A stretch of DNA of 64,000 nucleotides from Acutalibacteraceae bacterium (GCA_045537395.1 JAZSPI010000092.1:7169-71168); one strand, 5' to 3'. Positions 50,358-57,203 are shown, numbered from the stretch's first letter. Made by a program: numbers and translations. Notes: generated by a model from the sequence alone, not told the origin.

Positions 50358-50909
50358 TTACACCCACCTTTGCATATAAATCAAATCCTGATATGTACCG
50401 TCTTTGAGTTTACATGCCTTTGGTTTAACAGAAACAATTTTAAATCCGAATTTCTCATAAAGTGCTTGTCCCCTGTTGTTCCCTTCAAGAAATTCGAGTT
50501 CAACAATTTCCGTATCTTTGTGTTCTTGTGCTGCTTCTATAAGTTCTGTGAACATAGCAGAGCCGATGCCCAGATTCCAATAATCCTTAATAATAGCAAT
50601 ACCCAATACTGCTCGGTGGAAAGTTTTGCTTCCACTCAAAAAGTTGATGTCGCAGTTTCCGACGATTTTTCCGTCAATATAACATGCTATAACCAAAGTT
50701 TTATCAGATTCCCGGACATCAGAAATCCATTTTTCTTCACTTTCTACTGTAACGCCGTCCCAATCCTCCAGATAACGGGAAAGGAAGTTCGTTTCTCCGC
50801 TTGAAGTTTTAATGCTGTTGAGAAGCATTTCGCCATCTTCGATTTGAGGAGTTTTAAGAATTGCCGTAATTCCGTTTTTCAGTTCGATTTCCTTTGGTTC
50901 AAAAATCAT
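50358..50909 (-). CDS. GNAT-family N-acetyltransferase
   Basis: The DYWNLGIGSAMFTELIEAA motif is present. 183 aa. Confidence 0.8.
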   Translation of the reverse strand: MIFEPKEIELKNGITAILKTPQIEDGEMLLNSIKTSSGETNFLSRYLEDWDGVTVESEEKWISDVRESDKTLVIACYIDGKIVGNCDINFLSGSKTFHRAVLGIAIIKDYWNLGIGSAMFTELIEAAQEHKDTEIVELEFLEGNNRGQALYEKFGFKIVSVKPKACKLKDGTYQDLIYMQRWV

Positions 50910-51200
50910 AATCTTGCCTCCATAAAAATAAAAAATGCGTCTCTGACCGTAAAATCAGAAACGCAAACTCAGTAAAAAGTTATAATTATCTGCACACGGA
51001 CAAAGTAATATCGGTTTTTTCTTTTATCACTCGCCACATCATTTTGTCCGCCTGCCTTTCAAATTTCTTTTTATTCAGTATAGCACCCTATTTTTTGAAT
51101 GTCAATAAAATCATATATTGTTATCTCTTTTTACTGTTGCACAACATATTCCCCTTACCTGGAAAAAATATTATTATTCTGTTACAAATCAACATAACTA

Positions 51201-51229
51201 TTGACAGAAAGGCCGTATTTTGGTAAAAT
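51201..51229 (+). promoter_or_regulatory. sigma-70 promoter of the 51.3-56.1 kb operon
   Basis: TTGACA, 17 nt, TAAAAT, with a TG extended -10. A 5' stem-loop (51261-51285, TTCGGGTGAGT/ACTCACCGAA) abuts the GGAGG RBS. Confidence 0.55.
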
Positions 51230-51298
51230 ATTTACAACTGCAATTGGTTGCAAAAGAATTTTCGGGTGAGTGCTTACTCACCGAAGGAGGATTATATC

Positions 51299-52060
51299 AT
51301 GATGACAGATGCAAAAACCTTGGCGTACATAAACATGTATGCTATTTTAGGTACTCTGGAAAACCTTTGCGAACTTGACAAAGAAGCAAGCGAGCTTGTT
51401 AAAACAAAGAAGCCTGTTTCTGTTGGTCTTGAAGTAAAAGACGGCCCCAGTGCTACCATCACCTTCTCAAACGGCAGATGCAGAATGGAACAGGGCACAG
51501 CAAACTGTGATGTTCTTCTTCCCTTCTCATCCTGCGAAAAATTCAACGGTCTTATCGACGGTACCGTTACTCCCATCCCCTCAAAGGGCTTTTCAAAGAT
51601 AGGCTTCCTTCTTAAGAAGTTCACTCCCCTTACTGATATTCTTTCAAAGTATCTCAAGGCTACGGACGAAGATCTTAAGGATGACAGATTCTTTGAAATC
51701 AGCACAAAACTTATGTTCTATGTTATCACCGTTGCCCTTTCACAGATAGGTAACAACGATGAAATCGGCAAGTTCAGTGCAAGTCTTATTCCTGACGGTA
51801 TTATCGACGTTTCCATTAAAGATTGCGTTTCCGCAACCATTCAGGTTAAGGACAGCCATATGATTACAATCAAAGAAAAGCCCGAAGCCTTCCGTTCACA
51901 GATGCAGTTCTGCGACATCCGTACTGCAAGAGCTCTCTTTGACGGCAAAATCAACGCCATCGCTTCCATCGGTGAGGGCAAGGTTGAAATGCACGGTCTT
52001 ATCAATATGATTGACAACGTTAACAGAATACTTGACAGAGTAGCACTCTATCTTGCATAA
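51299..52060 (+). CDS. protein of unknown function, tentatively SCP2-like (sterol/lipid carrier fold), paralog A
   Basis: 253 aa. The C-terminal pattern DIRTARALFDGKINAIASIGEGKVEMHGLINMIDNVNRIL resembles the SCP2 Gk-l-i-G-d tail. It is a paralog of the 55320-56123 product, with shared motifs LxFxSxExxNxxxxGxxTP and FYxxxxAxSQ. Confidence 0.45.
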   Translation: MMTDAKTLAYINMYAILGTLENLCELDKEASELVKTKKPVSVGLEVKDGPSATITFSNGRCRMEQGTANCDVLLPFSSCEKFNGLIDGTVTPIPSKGFSKIGFLLKKFTPLTDILSKYLKATDEDLKDDRFFEISTKLMFYVITVALSQIGNNDEIGKFSASLIPDGIIDVSIKDCVSATIQVKDSHMITIKEKPEAFRSQMQFCDIRTARALFDGKINAIASIGEGKVEMHGLINMIDNVNRILDRVALYLA

Positions 52061-52072
52061 GGAGGTACAGAT

Positions 52073-53338
52073 ATGAGTTTTCCCGTATACAAAACCGATA
52101 AAAGCAGAGAAATGTTCTCTCGCGCTACAAAAGTAATCCCTTCAGGTATCTACGGTCATCTCGGTCCTGCTGAAGGTCAGTTCATTCCCGTATCAAAATG
52201 GCCCATGTTTGCCGAAAAAGCAAAGGGTACATATGTATGGGACGTTGACGGTAACAAATTTATCGACTATATGTGTGCATACGGTCCCAATGTATTAGGT
52301 TACTGTGATCCCGATGTTGATGCTGCTGCCGCAAAGCAGATAGCACTCGGTAACTGCACCACACAGCCGGGCAAAGTTATGGTTGAATGTGCAGAACTTC
52401 TGGTTGACACAGTTGCTTGTGCTGACTGGGCTTTCTTTGCAAAGAACGGTAACGATGCCACACAGGGCGCTATTATGTGCGCAAGAGCACATACTCACAG
52501 AAAGAAAGTTATTATGTTCTCAGGTTACTACCACGGTGTTTCTCCCTGGTGCCAGAAGATTGACTATCCGGGCGTTCTTCCCGAGGATGTTGCTAACAAC
52601 ATTATGCTTCCCTGGAACGATATTCCTCTTCTTGAAAGAACTATCGAAGAAAACAAAAATGAAATTGCCTGTCTTATCGCTCAGCCTTATGATCACGGTA
52701 ATTTCCACGATAACGCTTTTCCCGAAGACGGTTTCTGGCCTAAAGTAAGAGAAATCTGCACAAAGAATGACATCGTTCTTATTATTGACGATGTTCGTGC
52801 AGGCTTCCGTCTTGATCTTGCAGGCTCTGACCACTATTTTGGCTTTGAGGCTGACCTTATCTGCTTCTGTAAAGCACTCGCAAACGGTTACAATATGTCG
52901 GCTATCTGCGGTAAGGAATTTCTCAAGGGTGCTATGAGTTCTCTTGCATATACAGGTTCTTACTGGCTTTCAGCAGTTCCCTTTGCAGCTTGTATTGCAA
53001 ACATCAATAAGATGAAGGCTCTCGACATCCCCACAATGTTCAAACAGAAGGGTGAGAAACTTTGCAACGGTCTTGTAAAAGCAGGTGCAGAACACGGTAT
53101 TGACCTTGTTGTATCAGGTGCTCCCGCACTCTTCTACTTAAGAATAGGCAACGATGACAGTATGCTTCTCCATCAGGAATGGATTGCTGAAATGGTTTCA
53201 AGAGGCATTTTCCTTGCTTCTCACCATAACCACTTCATCAATGCTGCTCTTTCCGACAAGGATATCAAGCACACTATCGCAGTTGCTGAGGAATGCTTCG
53301 GTATTGTAGCAAAGAATCATCCCGAACTTTTCAGATAA
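52073..53338 (+). CDS. class-III (GSA-aminomutase-like) PLP-dependent aminotransferase
   Basis: 421 aa. Motifs: DVDGNKFIDYMCAYGPNVLGY, IIDDVRAGFRL, and a candidate PLP-Lys in FCKALANGYN. Confidence 0.8.
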   Translation: MSFPVYKTDKSREMFSRATKVIPSGIYGHLGPAEGQFIPVSKWPMFAEKAKGTYVWDVDGNKFIDYMCAYGPNVLGYCDPDVDAAAAKQIALGNCTTQPGKVMVECAELLVDTVACADWAFFAKNGNDATQGAIMCARAHTHRKKVIMFSGYYHGVSPWCQKIDYPGVLPEDVANNIMLPWNDIPLLERTIEENKNEIACLIAQPYDHGNFHDNAFPEDGFWPKVREICTKNDIVLIIDDVRAGFRLDLAGSDHYFGFEADLICFCKALANGYNMSAICGKEFLKGAMSSLAYTGSYWLSAVPFAACIANINKMKALDIPTMFKQKGEKLCNGLVKAGAEHGIDLVVSGAPALFYLRIGNDDSMLLHQEWIAEMVSRGIFLASHHNHFINAALSDKDIKHTIAVAEECFGIVAKNHPELFR

Positions 53339-53402
53339 TTATGTAAATTTTCTCCTATTGAGAGGAGATTAATATTAAATTACTATAATGGAGGAAAACA
53401 TT

Positions 53403-54281
53403 ATGCCACTTTCAAAAAATGAATGGCTTGCTCTCGAAAAAAAGGCTTATGAACTTCGTAAGCTTACAATTCAGACAACTGTATGGGCAGGCAGCGGACA
53501 TCTCGGCGGCGGTATGAGCGTTATGGACCTTCTTACCGTTCTCTATCACAAGTATCTTAACATTAAAGTTGAAGATCCCAAATGGGAAGACAGAGACCGT
53601 TTCATCCTTTCAAAAGGTCACGCAGCTATTGCTTATGCTCCCGTACTTTGCGACAAAGGCTTCAACGATGTTGAACTTCTTAAGACCTTTAACCTTTCCG
53701 GTTCAAAGATGGGTATGCATCTTGACTCAAACAAGGTTGTAGGTGTTGACGCATCCACAGGCTCACTCGGCCACGGTGCTTCAATTGCTGCAGGTACTGC
53801 TCTTGCTGCAAGAGTTCTCAAAAAAGACTACCTTACATATGTTGTAACCGGTGACGGTGAACTCGGTGAAGGTTCAAACTGGGAAGGCTTTATGACAATG
53901 AATCATTACAATCTTTCCAACTGTATCGTATTCATCGACCGTAACCACTGCATGATCGACGGCCCCACAGAAGAAGTTATGAAACTTGAACCCGTCGCAG
54001 ATAAGATGAGAGCTTTCGGCTTCAATACTATCTGTGTTGACGGTAACAACATCGGCGCTCTCTGCGAAGCGATTGATGCTGCTATCGAAAGAGCAAAAGA
54101 ACCCTGCGCACCCACATGTATCGTTATGGATACAAAGAAGGGCGCCGGCGTTAAGACAATGGAAGGCGATTATCTCTGGCACTACGGTGCTATTGATGAT
54201 GTACTTTTCGAAAAGTTCAACAAAGAACTTGAAGAAGATTATAAAGCACGCTGTGCAAGAGCAGAAAAGGAGGGCAAATAA
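53403..54281 (+). CDS. transketolase-like enzyme, N-terminal (PP-domain) subunit
   Basis: Motifs: SGHLGGGMS, DRFILSKGHAA, STGSLGHG, VTGDGELGEGSNWE, IDRNHCMIDG, WHYG. Start set at MPLSK with a GGAGGAAAA RBS. Confidence 0.85.
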   Translation: MPLSKNEWLALEKKAYELRKLTIQTTVWAGSGHLGGGMSVMDLLTVLYHKYLNIKVEDPKWEDRDRFILSKGHAAIAYAPVLCDKGFNDVELLKTFNLSGSKMGMHLDSNKVVGVDASTGSLGHGASIAAGTALAARVLKKDYLTYVVTGDGELGEGSNWEGFMTMNHYNLSNCIVFIDRNHCMIDGPTEEVMKLEPVADKMRAFGFNTICVDGNNIGALCEAIDAAIERAKEPCAPTCIVMDTKKGAGVKTMEGDYLWHYGAIDDVLFEKFNKELEEDYKARCARAEKEGK

Positions 54282-54283
54282 TT

Positions 54284-55297
54284 ATGGCAGGCGGATTTGT
54301 TTATAACGCAGTTGACCAGACTTCTATTTCAACTGCTGAAATTTACGGTAAAACCTTATCCGATATTATCATTAATGACCCCAAGGTTGTTGCTATTACT
54401 CCCGACCTTGCAAAGTCAACAAAATTAGGTGACGTTCTCAAGGTTTGCCCCGAAAGAGTTTTCAACGTCGGTATCGCTGAACAGGATATGTTTGGTGTTG
54501 GTGCAGGTATGGCAAGAGCAGGTCTCATCCCCTTCATGTCAGGTTTCTCTGCTTTCACATCAATGAGAGCCTGTGACCAGCTTCACACAGATATCTGCTA
54601 TCAGAACGTAAACGCAAAAATCATTGCTACTCATGCAGGTACATCCTTTGGTCAGGCAGGTTCAACTCACCATGCAATTACTGACCTTGCTATCACAAGA
54701 GCAATGCCCAACCTTACCGTTATCGTTCCCGCTGACGGTATCGAAACTGCACATGCAGTAAGAGCAGCATATGAAAACCCCGGTCCCTACTACATCCGTA
54801 TCAACCGTGGTTTCGACCGTGTTCTTTATTCCGGCAACCAGGATTACGGCTTTGAAGTAGGTAAGGCTGTTGAACTTCACGAAGGTACAGATATCACAGT
54901 TATCGCTTGCGGTTCCTGTGCATTCCAGGCTCTTCAGGCTGCTAACTTCCTTGAAAATTCAGACGGTCTTAAGGTTCGCGTTCTCAATATGCACACCATT
55001 AAGCCTATCGACAAGGAAGCAATCATCAAGGCAGTTCTTGACACAAGAAGAATTATCACTGTTGAAGACCACAGCGTAATCGGCGGTCTCGGTTCAGCCG
55101 TTGCCGAAGTTATGGTTGAAGCAGGTAAGGGCTGTGCATTCAAGATGCTCGGTCATCAGGATAAGTTTGCTCCCATCGGTCTTCACGAAGACATTATGTC
55201 TGAAGTTGGTATTGATACTAACGGTATCATTGCTGCTGTTCGTGAAGTTATGAACAAAGACTTTGAAGAAGACGATAACTGGGACGACGAATTTTAA
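54284..55297 (+). CDS. transketolase-like enzyme, C-terminal (Pyr plus C-domain) subunit
   Basis: Motifs: PERVFNVGIAEQDMFGVGAGMA, ATHAGTSFGQAGSTHH, HTIKPID, VEDHSVIGGLGSAV. The usual N-terminal ATR motif reads STA. Confidence 0.85.
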   Translation: MAGGFVYNAVDQTSISTAEIYGKTLSDIIINDPKVVAITPDLAKSTKLGDVLKVCPERVFNVGIAEQDMFGVGAGMARAGLIPFMSGFSAFTSMRACDQLHTDICYQNVNAKIIATHAGTSFGQAGSTHHAITDLAITRAMPNLTVIVPADGIETAHAVRAAYENPGPYYIRINRGFDRVLYSGNQDYGFEVGKAVELHEGTDITVIACGSCAFQALQAANFLENSDGLKVRVLNMHTIKPIDKEAIIKAVLDTRRIITVEDHSVIGGLGSAVAEVMVEAGKGCAFKMLGHQDKFAPIGLHEDIMSEVGIDTNGIIAAVREVMNKDFEEDDNWDDEF

Positions 55298-55319
55298 TTA
55301 ATACAAGGAGGCAAAGATT

Positions 55320-56123
55320 ATGGCTCATACAAAAGAAGCCTTATACTCAAACAAAATTTTCCTTAATGCAGCTTTGCCGCTTGTAAAGGTTATTGCAAAC
55401 GACGTTCCTTCTCTTAAGAAAAAGTTTGAAAATGTGGAGGCAGTTATCCAGGTAAGTTGTCTTGACCCTGAAAGTGAAGACGGCAAGCAGGGCATGCACT
55501 TTATTGTAAACAAAGGTGAATGGCTTGTTCATACCTGTCTTACAGAAAACCCCGATATCGAACTTACTTTCAAGAGCATGGAAGCACTCAATGATTTCTT
55601 CAAGGGCAACATCACCCCGGCAGGCATTCCGAAAATCAAAGGCCTCAAGAAAGCCGGTGTTCTTGTATCATTTGTAATGGTACTTCTTAAAATGGCTGGT
55701 CTTTTAGGTGCTACAGAAGCTCCGAAGGATGAAGAGACAAAAGAACTTCTCGTTAAATGTTACTTCTATCTTCTTTCCAGCGCTATCAGTCAGCTCAACA
55801 AAATGGGACACACAGAAATCAGAGACTGGACCTCTAAGAGCCCTGACCGTGTTTATGCTTTCGCAGTTGACGGTTATCCTCAGGTTTCTGCTTACCTTCG
55901 TATTAAAGCAGGTAAGTCCCGTGCAGGCAGAGGCGAATATAAGAGAGCAATGCCCTTCTTCACCCTTCGCTTCAATAACCTTGACAGTGCACTCGGTATT
56001 CTTCTCAGCACTGACGATATGCTTGAAAGCACAAAGGCAGGCAAACTTATAATGGACGGTGCTCCCGAATTCGGTGCACAGATCGGCGGATTTATGCTGG
56101 AAATCGCCGCACTTGCTAAATAA
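55320..56123 (+). CDS. protein of unknown function, tentatively SCP2-like, paralog B
   Basis: 267 aa, homologous along its length to the 51299-52060 product at roughly 20-25% identity by eye. Confidence 0.45.
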   Translation: MAHTKEALYSNKIFLNAALPLVKVIANDVPSLKKKFENVEAVIQVSCLDPESEDGKQGMHFIVNKGEWLVHTCLTENPDIELTFKSMEALNDFFKGNITPAGIPKIKGLKKAGVLVSFVMVLLKMAGLLGATEAPKDEETKELLVKCYFYLLSSAISQLNKMGHTEIRDWTSKSPDRVYAFAVDGYPQVSAYLRIKAGKSRAGRGEYKRAMPFFTLRFNNLDSALGILLSTDDMLESTKAGKLIMDGAPEFGAQIGGFMLEIAALAK

Positions 56124-56139
56124 ATCATAAAAGAATAAA

Positions 56140-56170
56140 AGTAGTCGCAGTAAAATGCGGCTACTTTTTT
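56140..56170 (+). terminator. intrinsic terminator of the five-gene operon
   Basis: The AGTAGTCGCA/TGCGGCTACT stem is followed by a T6 run. Confidence 0.75.
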
Positions 56171-57203
56171 ACGATTTTTGTTTGAAAGTAATTTTTTGCT
56201 CTATAGTATCAACAGTTGCATCCACTCCGAAGGGGATGATACATCTTGGTAAAGCGTGTCCCACGTTTACATTATACACAATGGGAAGTGAAGGGTTGCC
56301 GATTACCTCAATAAGAACCTTTTTGTATTCTTCGTAATAAACTTCCTCTGCAGGTTTTCCTACTATGATTCCGCTGATTACATCGAAAATACCTGTATTT
56401 TTTAAAGTAATAAGAGATTCTTTGTATTTCTCGGGTGCTGGTTTCATTTCACTCGATTCGAGCAGTAGTATTCTGCCTTTCCAAAAATTCATGTTAGGGA
56501 ACAAACCGTATTTCCTGCATAGTTCAGGTGAATCCTTATACCACTCTCCTGTATACATATCGAACAAGGTTTCAATACATCCGCCGAAAATTTTACCGCT
56601 GAAAACACCTTTTCCCTGCAAAAGTTCAAAGCCCCTATTTTTGTGTTTCTTTAATGGTGTACCCATTTGTTCTTTGCTGAAATCGGTTCTGTTTTCATAC
56701 CATAAATCAGAAGGAGTTATTTCTTTGATTGTTCCCGTAGTGATAAGTTCTTCGAAATATTTGCCCGTATAGGGAAGAATATTATTTTCTAATTCACATA
56801 TATCCGCTAAAAAGGATTGACCGTAAAAGGTATTAAGTCCCACCTTGTTGAGCATAAAGTGGTTTGCTGTCGTATCGGAAAAGCCCAAAAAAATTTTTTC
56901 ACTTACAGCATTTTTTAATTCGTCGTTCTTGAATAGGTACGGTATTAGCCTGTATGTATCATCGCCGCCTATGGCACATAAAATCATATCGACTTCGTTG
57001 TCACTGAAAGCCTGTATAAGGTCTTCCGCCCTTTTTTCCGGATGGGCTTTCAGATAATCATGACCTTTAAGAGCGTTATCCATAAACTTGACCTTAAGAC
57101 CGTAATTTTTTAATCGAGATATTCCCAGTTCTATTTCGTGTCTTGCAAAATCTTCCCCTGCCGTTCCATGGGAAAGGCTGATTATCGCTACAGTTTTAAC
57201 CAT
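56169..57203 (-). CDS. S66-family LD-carboxypeptidase (MccF-like)
   Basis: The nucleophile motif is FLGFSDTT and a late GHALP His motif is present. Start set at MVKTVAI because a TTGATT-17-TATAAT promoter lies inside the longer track ORF. Confidence 0.8.
   Translation of the reverse strand: MVKTVAIISLSHGTAGEDFARHEIELGISRLKNYGLKVKFMDNALKGHDYLKAHPEKRAEDLIQAFSDNEVDMILCAIGGDDTYRLIPYLFKNDELKNAVSEKIFLGFSDTTANHFMLNKVGLNTFYGQSFLADICELENNILPYTGKYFEELITTGTIKEITPSDLWYENRTDFSKEQMGTPLKKHKNRGFELLQGKGVFSGKIFGGCIETLFDMYTGEWYKDSPELCRKYGLFPNMNFWKGRILLLESSEMKPAPEKYKESLITLKNTGIFDVISGIIVGKPAEEVYYEEYKKVLIEVIGNPSLPIVYNVNVGHALPRCIIPFGVDATVDTIEQKITFKQKS

Follow-up and report, generated by a model that had tools for sequence, protein, structure and literature searches.

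The window analysed here, i.e., a stretch of 64,000 nucleotides from an Acutalibacteraceae bacterium, contains five co-directional ORFs which encode a protein designated P1, a class-III aminotransferase, the two subunits of a split transketolase (TK), designated TK-N and TK-C, and a protein designated P5 (Table 1). The intergenic gaps measure, from 5' to 3', 12, 49, 2 and 22 nt; a first-pass annotation, made from the sequence alone, had given a range of 2 to 64 nt, of which the minimum agrees with our ORF calls while the maximum is 49 nt, and a gap of 64 nt would fit a start of TK-N at its second Met. For P1, we used the ATG preceded by a ribosome binding site, where a mechanical ORF list instead opens at an upstream TTG (51248). 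A scan of positions 50800-56400 yielded two top-scoring promoter sites, both matching the consensus equally well, i.e., the one given in Table 1 and one on the minus strand. The terminator, which is common to the operon and a convergent LD-carboxypeptidase gene, folds with -18.5 kcal/mol (z = -5.74; none of 200 shuffled sequences was equally stable). These data confirm that the five tightly packed genes form a real operon, placed, as had been proposed, between a good putative promoter and a clean terminator. Neighbours of the operon in the window encode two GNATs, AAA-type, radical-SAM and Acyl_transf_3 proteins, GlyRS, LD-carboxypeptidase, TrpRS and GlgB; in agreement with the first-pass annotation, neither a transporter nor a regulator was found among these annotated neighbours.

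Table 1. Features of the five-gene operon (positions counted from the first base of the window)
Feature	Position	Strand	Basis or remark
Putative sigma-70-type promoter, TTGACA-17 nt-TAAAAT, extended -10 TG	51201..51229	+	11/12 consensus positions; sequence read directly; consensus match only
P1, 253 aa, predicted tandem double SCP2-like protein	51299..52060	+	AF2 and Foldseek; ATG after GAAGGAGG
Class-III (GSAM/FumI-like) PLP aminotransferase, 421 aa	52073..53338	+	Pfam Aminotran_3; PDB relative FumI
TK-N, ThDP (PP-domain) subunit of split transketolase, 297 aa	53388..54281	+	Pfam Transketolase_N
TK-C, Pyr and C-terminal-domain subunit of split transketolase, 337 aa	54284..55297	+	Pfam Transket_pyr, Transketolase_C
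P5, 267 aa, predicted tandem double SCP2-like paralogue of P1	55320..56123	+	AF2 and Foldseek
Intrinsic terminator, 13-bp hairpin (56137-56168) followed by T/U run	56137..56174	+	Sequence read, folding

P1 and P5 share 33% identity across 125 aa (E = 2e-9; BLASTP) and can be aligned over their entire lengths with 21-26% identity, which indicates that the two flanking products are, as previously suggested, full-length paralogues. Each is predicted to represent an SCP2 lipid-carrier fold duplicated in tandem. With the AF2 model of P1 (pLDDT 91.6, pTM 0.88), all 24 Foldseek matches in the PDB with E <= 1e-3 were SCP2, UbiJ-SCP2 or alkylsulfatase SCP2 domains, and the N-terminal half of P1 matches its C-terminal half with 98.6% probability (E = 1.2e-15; hhalign). 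The P5 model (pLDDT 81) shows the same topology, with TT1886, UbiJ-SCP2 and SCP2 proteins as its best Foldseek matches, so that every significant match of the two proteins was SCP2-type and none pointed to a non-lipid family. The SCP2-like domains had originally been placed in the C-terminal halves; the likeness to SCP2 holds, but extends to both halves of each protein (Foldseek, hhalign). The C-terminal domain of Eis, an SCP2 fold that carries no lipid, was present among the weak Foldseek matches of P1. UbiJ/UbiT and the SCP2 domain of the alkylsulfatase SdsA1, which have the same fold and were among the top Foldseek matches, present hydrophobic substrates to soluble enzymes; these are single SCP2 domains, often fused to others, whereas the operon encodes a paralogous pair of unfused tandem doubles, P1 and P5, both of which remain under the Pfam SCP2 threshold. 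The P1 family comprises 688 clusters at 50% identity, and P5-type proteins form a separate deep lineage.

The aminotransferase matches Pfam Aminotran_3 (2e-40) and, judged by PDB searches, its closest solved relative is by far the aminopentol aminotransferase FumI of Sphingopyxis sp. MTA144 (PDB 6hbs/6hbv; E = 6.6e-82 for 6hbs, as compared to 1.8e-48 for the best glutamate-1-semialdehyde aminomutase). The alignment with FumI, likewise a class-III PLP enzyme, covers the full length and includes the CxxK PLP-lysine motif; identity is moderate and lower than the 52-59% shared with cassette orthologues from other phyla. The protein is under every NCBIfam equivalog cut-off (hemL, 210 vs. 527 bits), with "glutamate-1-semialdehyde 2,1-aminomutase" as its top name, and in the same comparison its subfamily also includes GntE and other non-lipid enzymes. 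Hydrolysed fumonisin B1, the substrate of FumI, is a sphinganine-mimicking long-chain 2-amino-3-ol, which the enzyme deaminates at C2 by transfer to pyruvate (PMC3136697). Unlike the enzyme described here, FumI is encoded with the carboxylesterase FumD in the fum cluster, and the publications consulted on FumI mention neither an SCP2 partner nor a transketolase.

TK-N matches Transketolase_N (2e-40), TK-C matches Transket_pyr (3e-39) and Transketolase_C (1e-25), and the two-subunit split TK of Carboxydothermus hydrogenoformans represents the best solved relative of both (6yak, 5e-62, and 6yaj, 2e-75, respectively). The ThDP/Mg motif, the cofactor-activating Glu and the catalytic histidines are retained, as are the SGHxGG, SKGH, GDGE...N and WHY motifs of TK-N. 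Conversely, TK-N and its counterparts in distant cassettes have GMHL in place of the canonical GHP, and the ATR...GEDG of C. hydrogenoformans and human TK reads STAE...GQAG in this family. Alignment to these two TKs places A18 of TK-C at human R318 (E. coli R358) and Q124-A125 at human E423-D424 (A125 at the position of E. coli D469), while S45, E66, H117, H129 and R175 are retained. In E. coli TK, R358 is involved in phosphate binding, and D469, which binds the sugar hydroxyl beside the cleaved bond, is responsible for stereoisomer selection (PMC11387542, PMC7661550). Of 68 close orthologues, 67 share the Ala at the A18 position and one has Ser; Q124 and A125 show no variation across 66, and all six distant cassettes retain A18 and A125, with Q124 replaced by Ala in one. 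The substrate channel is thus altered and has lost one sugar-phosphate-binding Arg and the sugar-hydroxyl-binding Asp; as three of the four phosphate-binding positions (S45, H117, R175) are retained, the substrate may carry an anionic group at its distal end. Although "transketolase" is the top NCBIfam name, the scores (225 and 238 bits) are far under the cut-off of 488 bits, and together with the near-invariant substitutions these scores indicate, in line with the first-pass annotation, that the split TK is not a standard pentose-phosphate enzyme. Canonical TKs function in sugar metabolism, whereas this TK is part of a five-gene module.

Among 83 gut Clostridia loci (Acutalibacteraceae/Oscillospiraceae), every sufficiently long locus carried the five genes in the same order, with differing flanks, and the order is also kept in Guggenheimella bovis, a Spirochaete, Mobilicoccus and further metagenome contigs, including non-host metagenome lineages. 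The cassette is thus conserved across three or more bacterial phyla (Clostridia, Spirochaetes and Actinobacteria lineages), which speaks for the first-pass reading, and a P5 homologue is located immediately 3' of TK-C in all complete cassettes. A VOC/glyoxalase-family gene, absent from the window, lies immediately downstream in 5 of the 6 complete distant cassettes; TetR regulators accompany three of the distant cassettes, and one carries a BaiCD/FadH-type ene-reductase. The only aldehyde dehydrogenase (ALDH) clearly belonging to a cassette is the MdlD/class-3-like enzyme of G. bovis, which is nearest to the benzaldehyde dehydrogenase MdlD at a score below cut-off (435 vs. 550 bits); the ALDH that adjoins the cassette of Mobilicoccus has the scores of a succinic-semialdehyde dehydrogenase and perhaps does not belong with it. 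One actinobacterium has a two-gene variant with P1 and the aminotransferase and without the remaining genes, which fits a deamination that is useful alone and a pairing of P1 with the aminotransferase. Overall, the accessory genes point to breakdown with an aldehyde product rather than to synthesis.

Tentatively, and with a probability somewhat short of even, we propose that the operon serves, as a self-contained module, to degrade or detoxify a hydrophobic long-chain 2-amino-alcohol, with sphingoid bases (i.e., sphinganine, sphingosine, phytosphingosine) or close analogues as the likeliest substrates. In the pathway that we infer, including its substrate, direction, order of steps and pairing of carriers with enzymes, P1 would hold the poorly soluble lipid amine in a hydrophobic cavity and deliver it to the FumI-like aminotransferase, which would transfer the C2 amino group to an oxo-acid (e.g., pyruvate) and yield a 1,3-dihydroxy-2-ketone, chemically a "lipid ketose". 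The split ThDP enzyme, probably an alpha2beta2 assembly of TK-N and TK-C, would then attack the C2 carbonyl and cut the C2-C3 bond to give a long-chain aldehyde, with the two-carbon glycolaldehyde unit kept on ThDP until its transfer to an acceptor aldose or its release. P5 would ferry the ketol or the aldehyde to or from the TK, and the aldehyde would pass to general enzymes in the organism studied here or, in some other taxa, to the in-cluster aldehyde dehydrogenase or ene-reductase. The first-pass annotation had suggested that the TK and aminotransferase, bracketed by lipid carriers, make or break a hydrophobic ketol or amino-diol; this suggestion gains additional support from the relationship to FumI, which acts on C2 of a sphinganine-like amine, and the accessory genes favour "break" over "make".

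A sphingoid substrate is further consistent with the confident tandem SCP2 folds of P1 and P5, whose matches are all lipid-binding, and with the loss of the R358 and D469 equivalents, as the predicted keto-sphinganine has neither a C4 hydroxyl nor a phosphate. On the other hand, the FumI substrate is 1-deoxy and gives a methyl ketone, whereas the product proposed here is a hydroxymethyl ketone, which a TK normally needs, and the genes next to the operon in the window include neither a ceramidase nor a lipid transporter nor one for aldehyde handling. Natural D-erythro sphingoid bases are 3R, and canonical transketolase donors are 3S; this mismatch would call for an epimerase, which the frequent VOC gene could encode, or for a changed stereo-preference.

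The automatic names would suggest chance neighbours, i.e., an ordinary pentose-phosphate split TK and HemL (glutamate-1-semialdehyde aminomutase) beside two unrelated hypothetical proteins. Scores far under the curated cut-offs, near-invariant active-site substitutions in TK-C and identical gene order in three phyla amid unrelated flanks make this hardly credible, and further haem-synthesis genes were absent from the annotated loci and from the operon's immediate neighbours. We also consider it very unlikely that the TK cleaves a steroid side chain in the manner of the steroid-17,20-desmolase DesAB of Clostridium scindens, with P1 and P5 as sterol carriers. The split architecture, the sterol carrier fold of SCP2 and the gut-dwelling organisms would suit such a role, and DesAB, itself from a gut Clostridium, has been called a steroid transketolase (PMC13639069) and is reported to cleave a hydrophobic alpha-ketol (PMC3735941, PMC13639069). 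However, no natural amino-steroid would explain an always-linked aminotransferase, no 20-hydroxysteroid dehydrogenase or desD-type transporter was found in any locus examined, and the cassette is not confined to host-associated lineages. DesAB and the sulfo-transketolase SqwGH, likewise split TK homologues recruited to non-pentose-phosphate substrates, are set apart from the TK described here by gene context, as their partners (an HSDH and a transporter, and sulfoglycolysis genes, respectively) include neither an aminotransferase nor SCP2 proteins.

A substrate other than a long-chain lipid, namely a smaller or aromatic amino-alcohol or an aminopolyol (e.g., an aryl-serinol or norephedrine-type compound or an amino-deoxy-alditol), with the SCP2-like proteins as scaffolds or binders of a moderately hydrophobic ligand, seems unlikely to us; the MdlD-like, if sub-cut-off, ALDH of G. 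bovis, the retained phosphate-site residues, non-lipid members of the aminotransferase subfamily and SCP2 folds such as that of Eis speak for it. Two dedicated tandem-SCP2 proteins per operon, kept across phyla, a far better match to FumI than to any soluble-substrate enzyme and, for polyols, the loss of the hydroxyl-binding Asp argue against it, and sugar or amino-acid transporters showed no consistent linkage in the annotated distant loci. An SPT-independent route to sphingoid lipids would result if the operon were biosynthetic, with the TK joining a fatty aldehyde to a two-carbon ketol donor (hydroxypyruvate or a ketose phosphate), the aminotransferase converting the 1,3-dihydroxy-2-ketone to a sphingoid-like 2-amino-1,3-diol and the SCP2 proteins holding the intermediates. 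Either reaction can in principle proceed both ways, the engineered TK-then-transaminase cascade cited in the first-pass annotation runs in this direction, and the operon in the window lies without a regulator amid housekeeping genes. We nevertheless regard synthesis as rather improbable: neither an aldehyde-supplying acyl-ACP/CoA reductase nor a product-using N-acyltransferase, kinase or head-group enzyme was found in any of about 90 loci, the TetR, ALDH, VOC and ene-reductase genes found elsewhere are typical of catabolism or detoxification, FumI is catabolic, and the variant with P1 and the aminotransferase only would make no sense for such synthesis.

According to the first-pass annotation, no characterised system with this gene set is known; a natural, conserved and biosynthetic pairing of a TK-like ThDP enzyme with an adjacent aminotransferase, which also counts in favour of synthesis, is however known from AniP/AniQ of the Streptomyces anisomycin pathway, which act on a non-phosphorylated hydrophobic substrate, with the phosphate-site and D469-site residues replaced as well (PMC11387542). 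AniP, which condenses an aryl-pyruvate, differs in that it is a single chain of >500 aa and lacks the TK histidine motif, whereas the TK in the window is split with this motif intact, and the anisomycin pathway has no SCP2 proteins. If correct, the breakdown module that we favour would represent a so far undescribed route for sphingosine-like lipids, in which the amino group is removed and the chain is then cut by an unusual TK; no publication describing such deamination with transketolase cleavage was found. Bacterial conversion of sphingoid bases as such is known from Pseudomonas aeruginosa sphBCD, which renders these antimicrobial compounds non-toxic (PMC11893366); this system relies on a cytochrome c and a periplasmic oxidoreductase of unrelated sequence class and has no aminotransferase, transketolase or SCP2 protein.

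The first-pass annotation had described a compact five-gene operon at positions 51201-56170, and this description held as written, with five ORFs on the + strand, a promoter-like site, a terminator, and Aminotran_3, Transketolase_N, Transket_pyr and Transketolase_C domains (Pfam) in the operon products. In order, the genes encode an SCP2-like protein (P1), a class-III aminotransferase (AT), the two subunits of a split transketolase (TK-N and TK-C) and a second SCP2-like protein (P5), and the successive intergenic gaps are 12, 49, 2 and 22 nt; we refer to this gene set as the cassette. The hairpin located 3' of P5 is also common to the convergent LD-carboxypeptidase gene. The operon's neighbours (two GNATs, an AAA-type protein, a radical-SAM protein, Acyl_transf_3, GlyRS, LD-carboxypeptidase, TrpRS and GlgB) include no transporter or regulator, as had also been noted at first reading. 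No riboswitch or other RNA element was detected by Rfam in the entire window, and no second transketolase or aminotransferase copy was found in the window or in the retrieved flanks.

Coordinates of the operon features in the window and of the VOC (glyoxalase-family) genes adjoining distant cassettes
Feature	Position	Strand	Remarks
Promoter-like site TTGACA-17-TAAAAT with TG extension	51201-51229		11/12 positions match
P1	51299-52060	+	253 aa; ATG start, GAAGGAGG just before
AT, class-III aminotransferase	52073-53338	+	421 aa
TK-N	53388-54281	+	297 aa
TK-C	54284-55297	+	337 aa
P5	55320-56123	+	267 aa
13-bp hairpin followed by U run, 3' of P5	56137-56174		-18.5 kcal/mol; z = -5.7; no shuffle equals
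VOC gene, locus L085	9300-9818
VOC gene, locus L086	13778-14380
VOC gene, locus L087	13745-14269
VOC gene, locus L091	13954-14652
VOC gene, locus L093	13713-14192

The 5' leader of P1 contains, at 51261-51286, a perfect 7-bp hairpin (GGUGAGU-GCUU-ACUCACC) a few nt upstream of the P1 Shine-Dalgarno sequence; folding of this leader was unexceptional (z = -1.9), and there was no Rfam match. Upstream of the operon and divergent from it, four small head-to-tail genes on the - strand (48642-50909) encode a GNAT, an AAA-type NTPase or kinase-like protein, another GNAT and a radical-SAM/4Fe-4S protein, with overlaps of a few bases at 3/4 junctions. The adjacency of this group to the cassette is not kept in other loci.

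A genome scan found a P1 relative in 243 GTDB species genomes, 80 of which were kept; all of these 80 were gut MAGs (Acutalibacteraceae, Oscillospiraceae or unclassified Clostridia), with sheep, goat, roe deer, yak, cattle, human and others as hosts. Wherever a locus was long enough, the five genes occurred in identical order, and the flanks varied. More distant cassettes were reached through distant P1 relatives (27-45% identity) by homology search and contig look-up, and the identical five-gene order was found in Guggenheimella bovis (GCA_054492335.1; a Clostridium available in culture), a Spirochaete MAG, a Mobilicoccus (Actinobacteria) MAG and three more metagenome lineages. Conservation of the gene neighbourhood, which had been put forward as a check on the operon, is therefore seen in Clostridia, Spirochaete and Actinobacteria loci. 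Identities between the distant cassettes and the window proteins were 52-59% for AT, 52-66% for TK-C, 49-56% for TK-N, 44-56% for P5 and 29-41% for P1. The two carrier paralogues thus differ greatly in evolutionary rate across phyla (29-41% for P1 vs. 44-56% for P5), with the enzymes at 49-66%.

The first reading had assigned SCP2-like character to the C-terminal halves of P1 and P5. Both proteins scored below the gathering threshold of the Pfam SCP2 family (PF02036), with a sub-threshold match in the N-terminal half of P1 (residues 20-75; 16.6 bits vs. a cut-off of 21.3; E = 0.01) and no match in P5; some distant homologues bear a precomputed, mostly "faint", PF02036 match. No NCBIfam model was found for P1 or P5, and sequence-only PDB searches with each returned noise alone (anti-sigma F, Fab chains). 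The AF2 models (pLDDT 91.6 and pTM 0.88 for P1; pLDDT 81.0 for P5) show a helix-helix-four-strand-helix unit that occurs twice in each protein. Foldseek searches of these models against the PDB recovered the alpha/beta SCP2 fold (long N-terminal helix, five-stranded sheet, C-terminal helix) with probability 1.00 and TM-scores (target) of 0.5-0.68. All significant PDB matches were SCP2-type lipid-binding domains, including UbiJ-SCP2, human, rabbit, yeast, insect, archaeal and Thermus SCP2, and the SCP2 domains of the alkylsulfatases SdsA1 and Pisa1. Moreover, a profile-profile comparison of the N- and C-terminal halves of 208 family members matched the two halves over 113 columns (98.6% probability, E = 1.2e-15). 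This match and the repeated unit show that the SCP2-like domain is duplicated in tandem within each of P1 and P5; the SCP2 likeness thus stands, and its restriction to the C-terminal halves was too narrow.

BLASTP aligned P1 with P5 at 33% identity over 125 aa (E = 2e-9), and identity was 21-26% when the proteins were aligned end to end; judged by these alignments, the two proteins are paralogous. They belong to a large family without a name. The 90% collection holds 2131 relatives of P1 and 1086 of P5, all "hypothetical"; at 50% identity the family forms 688 clusters, nearly all of them stand-alone proteins of ~250-270 aa, in which P1-type and P5-type proteins form separate deep lineages.

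AT belongs to the class-III aminotransferases (Aminotran_3, PF00202; 139 bits vs. a cut-off of 30.5), where it falls in the GSAM-like branch and scores far under every NCBIfam equivalog cut-off. It does not score as HemL (TIGR00713, 210 bits vs. 527; PRK00062, 224 vs. 398). Its best solved relative is the "aminopentol aminotransferase" FumI (6hbs/6hbv; E = 6.6e-82, full-length alignment), which exceeds the best PDB GSAM match (1.8e-48) by more than 30 orders of magnitude. The PLP-lysine motif of AT, CFCKALANGY, aligns with the FumI motif and is kept in six distant cassettes. [quoted passage not shown] The nearest characterised enzyme to AT therefore acts on a sphinganine-like long-chain 2-amino-3-ol, and by homology AT is a FumI-like aminotransferase that would putatively deaminate such a compound with pyruvate. 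The Sphingopyxis fum cluster might include a ThDP enzyme among its genes, a possibility that carries no weight in our reading.

TK-N and TK-C together contain the PP, Pyr and C-terminal domains of the ThDP transketolase superfamily in split form (Pfam), and PDB searches placed both subunits nearest to a reconstituted split enzyme, the Carboxydothermus hydrogenoformans transketolase (5e-62 and 2e-75, respectively); their NCBIfam transketolase scores were 225 and 238 bits vs. a cut-off of 488. TK-N carries the motifs GDGELGEG...N, SGHLGG, SKGH, MHLD and WHY. Alignment to the C. hydrogenoformans and human enzymes showed that the ThDP/Mg motif GDG...N and the cofactor-activating Glu (E66) are kept, as are the catalytic histidines (equivalents of E. 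coli H26, H66, H100, H261, H461 and H473; H117 and H129 in TK-C). With these residues retained, cofactor binding and ketol chemistry should be intact.

Under the human-to-E. coli numbering equivalences of the transketolase literature, TK-C has A18 in place of human R318 (E. coli R358) and Q124-A125 in place of human E423-D424 (D424 being E. coli D469), and S45, H117 and R175 (E. coli S385, H461 and R520) remain as three phosphate-site residues. In the E. coli enzyme, the residues that bind the phosphate of the substrate are R358, S385, H461 and R520, and D469 forms a hydrogen bond to a sugar hydroxyl, selects between stereoisomers and is a classic site for specificity-widening mutations (PMC11387542, PMC7661550). 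TK-C thus lacks the full phosphate set plus D469 of a canonical EC 2.2.1.1 enzyme, as the equivalents of R358 and D469 are both Ala. The motifs STAE and FGQAG(S/T)THH in TK-C and GMH(L/P)D in TK-N are family-wide among 66-68 close orthologues, with one exception (Ser for A18), and recur in six cassettes of other phyla, with Q124 replaced by Ala in one. As judged from these residues, TK-N and TK-C represent a distinct transketolase subfamily, with a predicted substrate channel that lacks one phosphate ligand and the ligand of the hydroxyl beside the scissile bond.

The operon thus combines a class-III aminotransferase, members of the transketolase superfamily and SCP2-fold proteins. We tentatively hypothesize, as a possibility rather than a probability, that the cassette encodes a new oxygen-independent breakdown of sphingoid bases, found in several phyla, by C2 transamination and transketolase-type C2-C3 cleavage of a "lipid ketose" with tandem-SCP2 chaperones. 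More generally, the parts are in keeping with a brief catabolic or detoxification pathway acting on a hydrophobic 2-amino-alcohol. The lipid would be presented by an SCP2-type carrier, and the FumI-like aminotransferase would convert C2-NH2 to C2=O. Given a 1-hydroxyl, as in sphingoid bases, the product HOCH2-CO-CHOH-R would formally be a ketose, which the transketolase could cut between C2 and C3 to release R-CHO; the glycolaldehyde unit would stay bound to ThDP until passed to an acceptor or set free. A substrate bearing CH2, rather than CHOH, at the next carbon would agree with the missing D469-type Asp, and an alkyl tail in place of a phosphate with the missing R358-type Arg. The gut is rich in sphingoid bases, and these are toxic for Gram-positive bacteria, which provides a plausible selective reason for the cassette; their source could be the host, the diet or Bacteroides. 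Their antimicrobial activity has been described (PMC11893366). Among the points that weaken the proposal, the substrate of FumI itself has no 1-OH, the 3R configuration of natural sphingoid bases differs from the 3S configuration of transketolase donors, and three phosphate-site residues persist in TK-C.

Genes beside the distant cassettes bear on this scheme. A VOC gene lies directly 3' of P5 in 5/6 complete distant cassettes, overlapping P5 in two, and none was found in the window or in the Acutalibacteraceae cassettes. The VOC proteins show only weak similarity to glyoxalase I (NCBIfam); in the pathway they could act as C3 epimerase or as ketol isomerase, and C3 epimerisation by such a protein might account for the stereochemistry, although the window itself has no VOC gene. 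TetR regulators occur beside 3 distant cassettes, and an MdlD/class-3-like aldehyde dehydrogenase (ALDH) beside that of G. bovis; an aldehyde product and catabolism induced by a ligand would agree with the ALDH and TetR genes of these clusters. Beside one distant cassette (L093, 14189-17240), a 757-aa BaiCD/FadH/bilirubin-reductase-like Fe-S flavin ene-reductase and a TetR gene lie 3' of the cassette; such an enzyme would be in keeping with a sphingosine-derived 2-enal, for example hexadecenal.

A biosynthetic direction is distinctly unlikely in our judgement. It has a parallel of sorts in AniP/AniQ of anisomycin biosynthesis, a natural transketolase-like and aminotransferase pair (PMC11387542), so that this pairing as such has precedent; AniP differs from the cassette transketolase in being single-chain, biosynthetic and without the histidine motif. 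We would give somewhat more room to a non-lipid or aromatic substrate, though it too is unlikely: the nearest relative of the G. bovis ALDH is a benzaldehyde dehydrogenase, making an aromatic amino-diol possible; the FumI kinship of AT speaks against such a substrate. A steroid role like that of DesAB, a split transketolase tied to 20-HSDH and transporter genes in cortisol side-chain cleavage, is very improbable, as no steroid gene occurs in any locus and the aminotransferase would be left without a role. No HSDH or desD-like gene was found in the window or the ~90 loci, and gene context thus sets the cassette apart from DesAB. The dirAB genes of a recent androgen paper are HSDH genes and were set aside as irrelevant. 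Likewise, no sulfoglycolysis genes were found near the operon or the cassettes at distant loci, and this context separates the cassette from SqwGH, a split transketolase within a sulfoquinovose-degradation cluster. Chance adjacency of housekeeping genes (a pentose-phosphate transketolase and HemL) was rejected and keeps hardly any weight, given the scores, the active-site changes and the synteny. By analogy, the proposed sphingoid-base cassette would combine the deamination of FumI with hydrophobic-ketol cleavage by a split transketolase, as in DesAB, and with lipid presentation of the UbiJ kind. A literature search (transketolase, aminotransferase, SCP2, sphingoid/sphingosine) found no published account of the five-gene set.

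Sphingoid bases serve both in signalling and as antimicrobial lipids of host defence, and their disposal by gut and environmental bacteria is, to our knowledge, largely obscure. Engineers gain aliphatic-aldehyde specificity in transketolase by mutating D469, R358 and neighbouring sites. One partly studied sphingoid-base system is sphBCD of P. aeruginosa, whose product is unidentified (PMC11893366). The cassette provides a concrete, testable candidate pathway for this disposal. If true, the proposal would add a non-phosphorylative alternative to the sphingosine-1-phosphate lyase route, the first natural transketolase demonstrated on a fatty ketol, a third natural example, following DesAB and SqwGH, of a split transketolase put to use on a non-sugar substrate and a new tandem-SCP2 family of lipid-presenting proteins; with Ala already at the D469 and R358 positions, it would also offer a natural template for aliphatic-aldehyde specificity. 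Many cassette-bearing MAGs come from livestock gut, and the cassette may bear on detoxification of sphinganine-analogue mycotoxins (fumonisins, AAL toxins) in this anaerobic environment.

Several loci depart from the common arrangement. An actinobacterial contig (L090, 9001-11041) carries a P1-type gene and AT alone, without transketolase or P5, among WhiB, MtrAB and LpqB, which suggests a minimal deamination-only module. Such a variant would be in keeping with deamination giving protection on its own, as with fumonisin; it further points to P1 as the partner of the aminotransferase and, from gene position, to P5 as that of the transketolase. The cassette at L089 (6232-10694) is decayed, with AT in two ORFs, TK-N truncated by a DDE transposase, and TK-C and P5 missing; one further locus has an orphan P1. 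At L087 (14296-18756), the only distant cassette with a sulfatase beside it, this gene lies 3' of the cassette with a GH20 hexosaminidase near; the head groups of glycosphingolipids (sulfatide, gangliosides) are substrates for both types of enzyme, and the proximity could be coincidence. In two related MAGs (L002, 15280-20759; L003, 5722-11201), a 9836-aa ORF with no recorded Pfam match starts ~440 nt downstream of the cassette.
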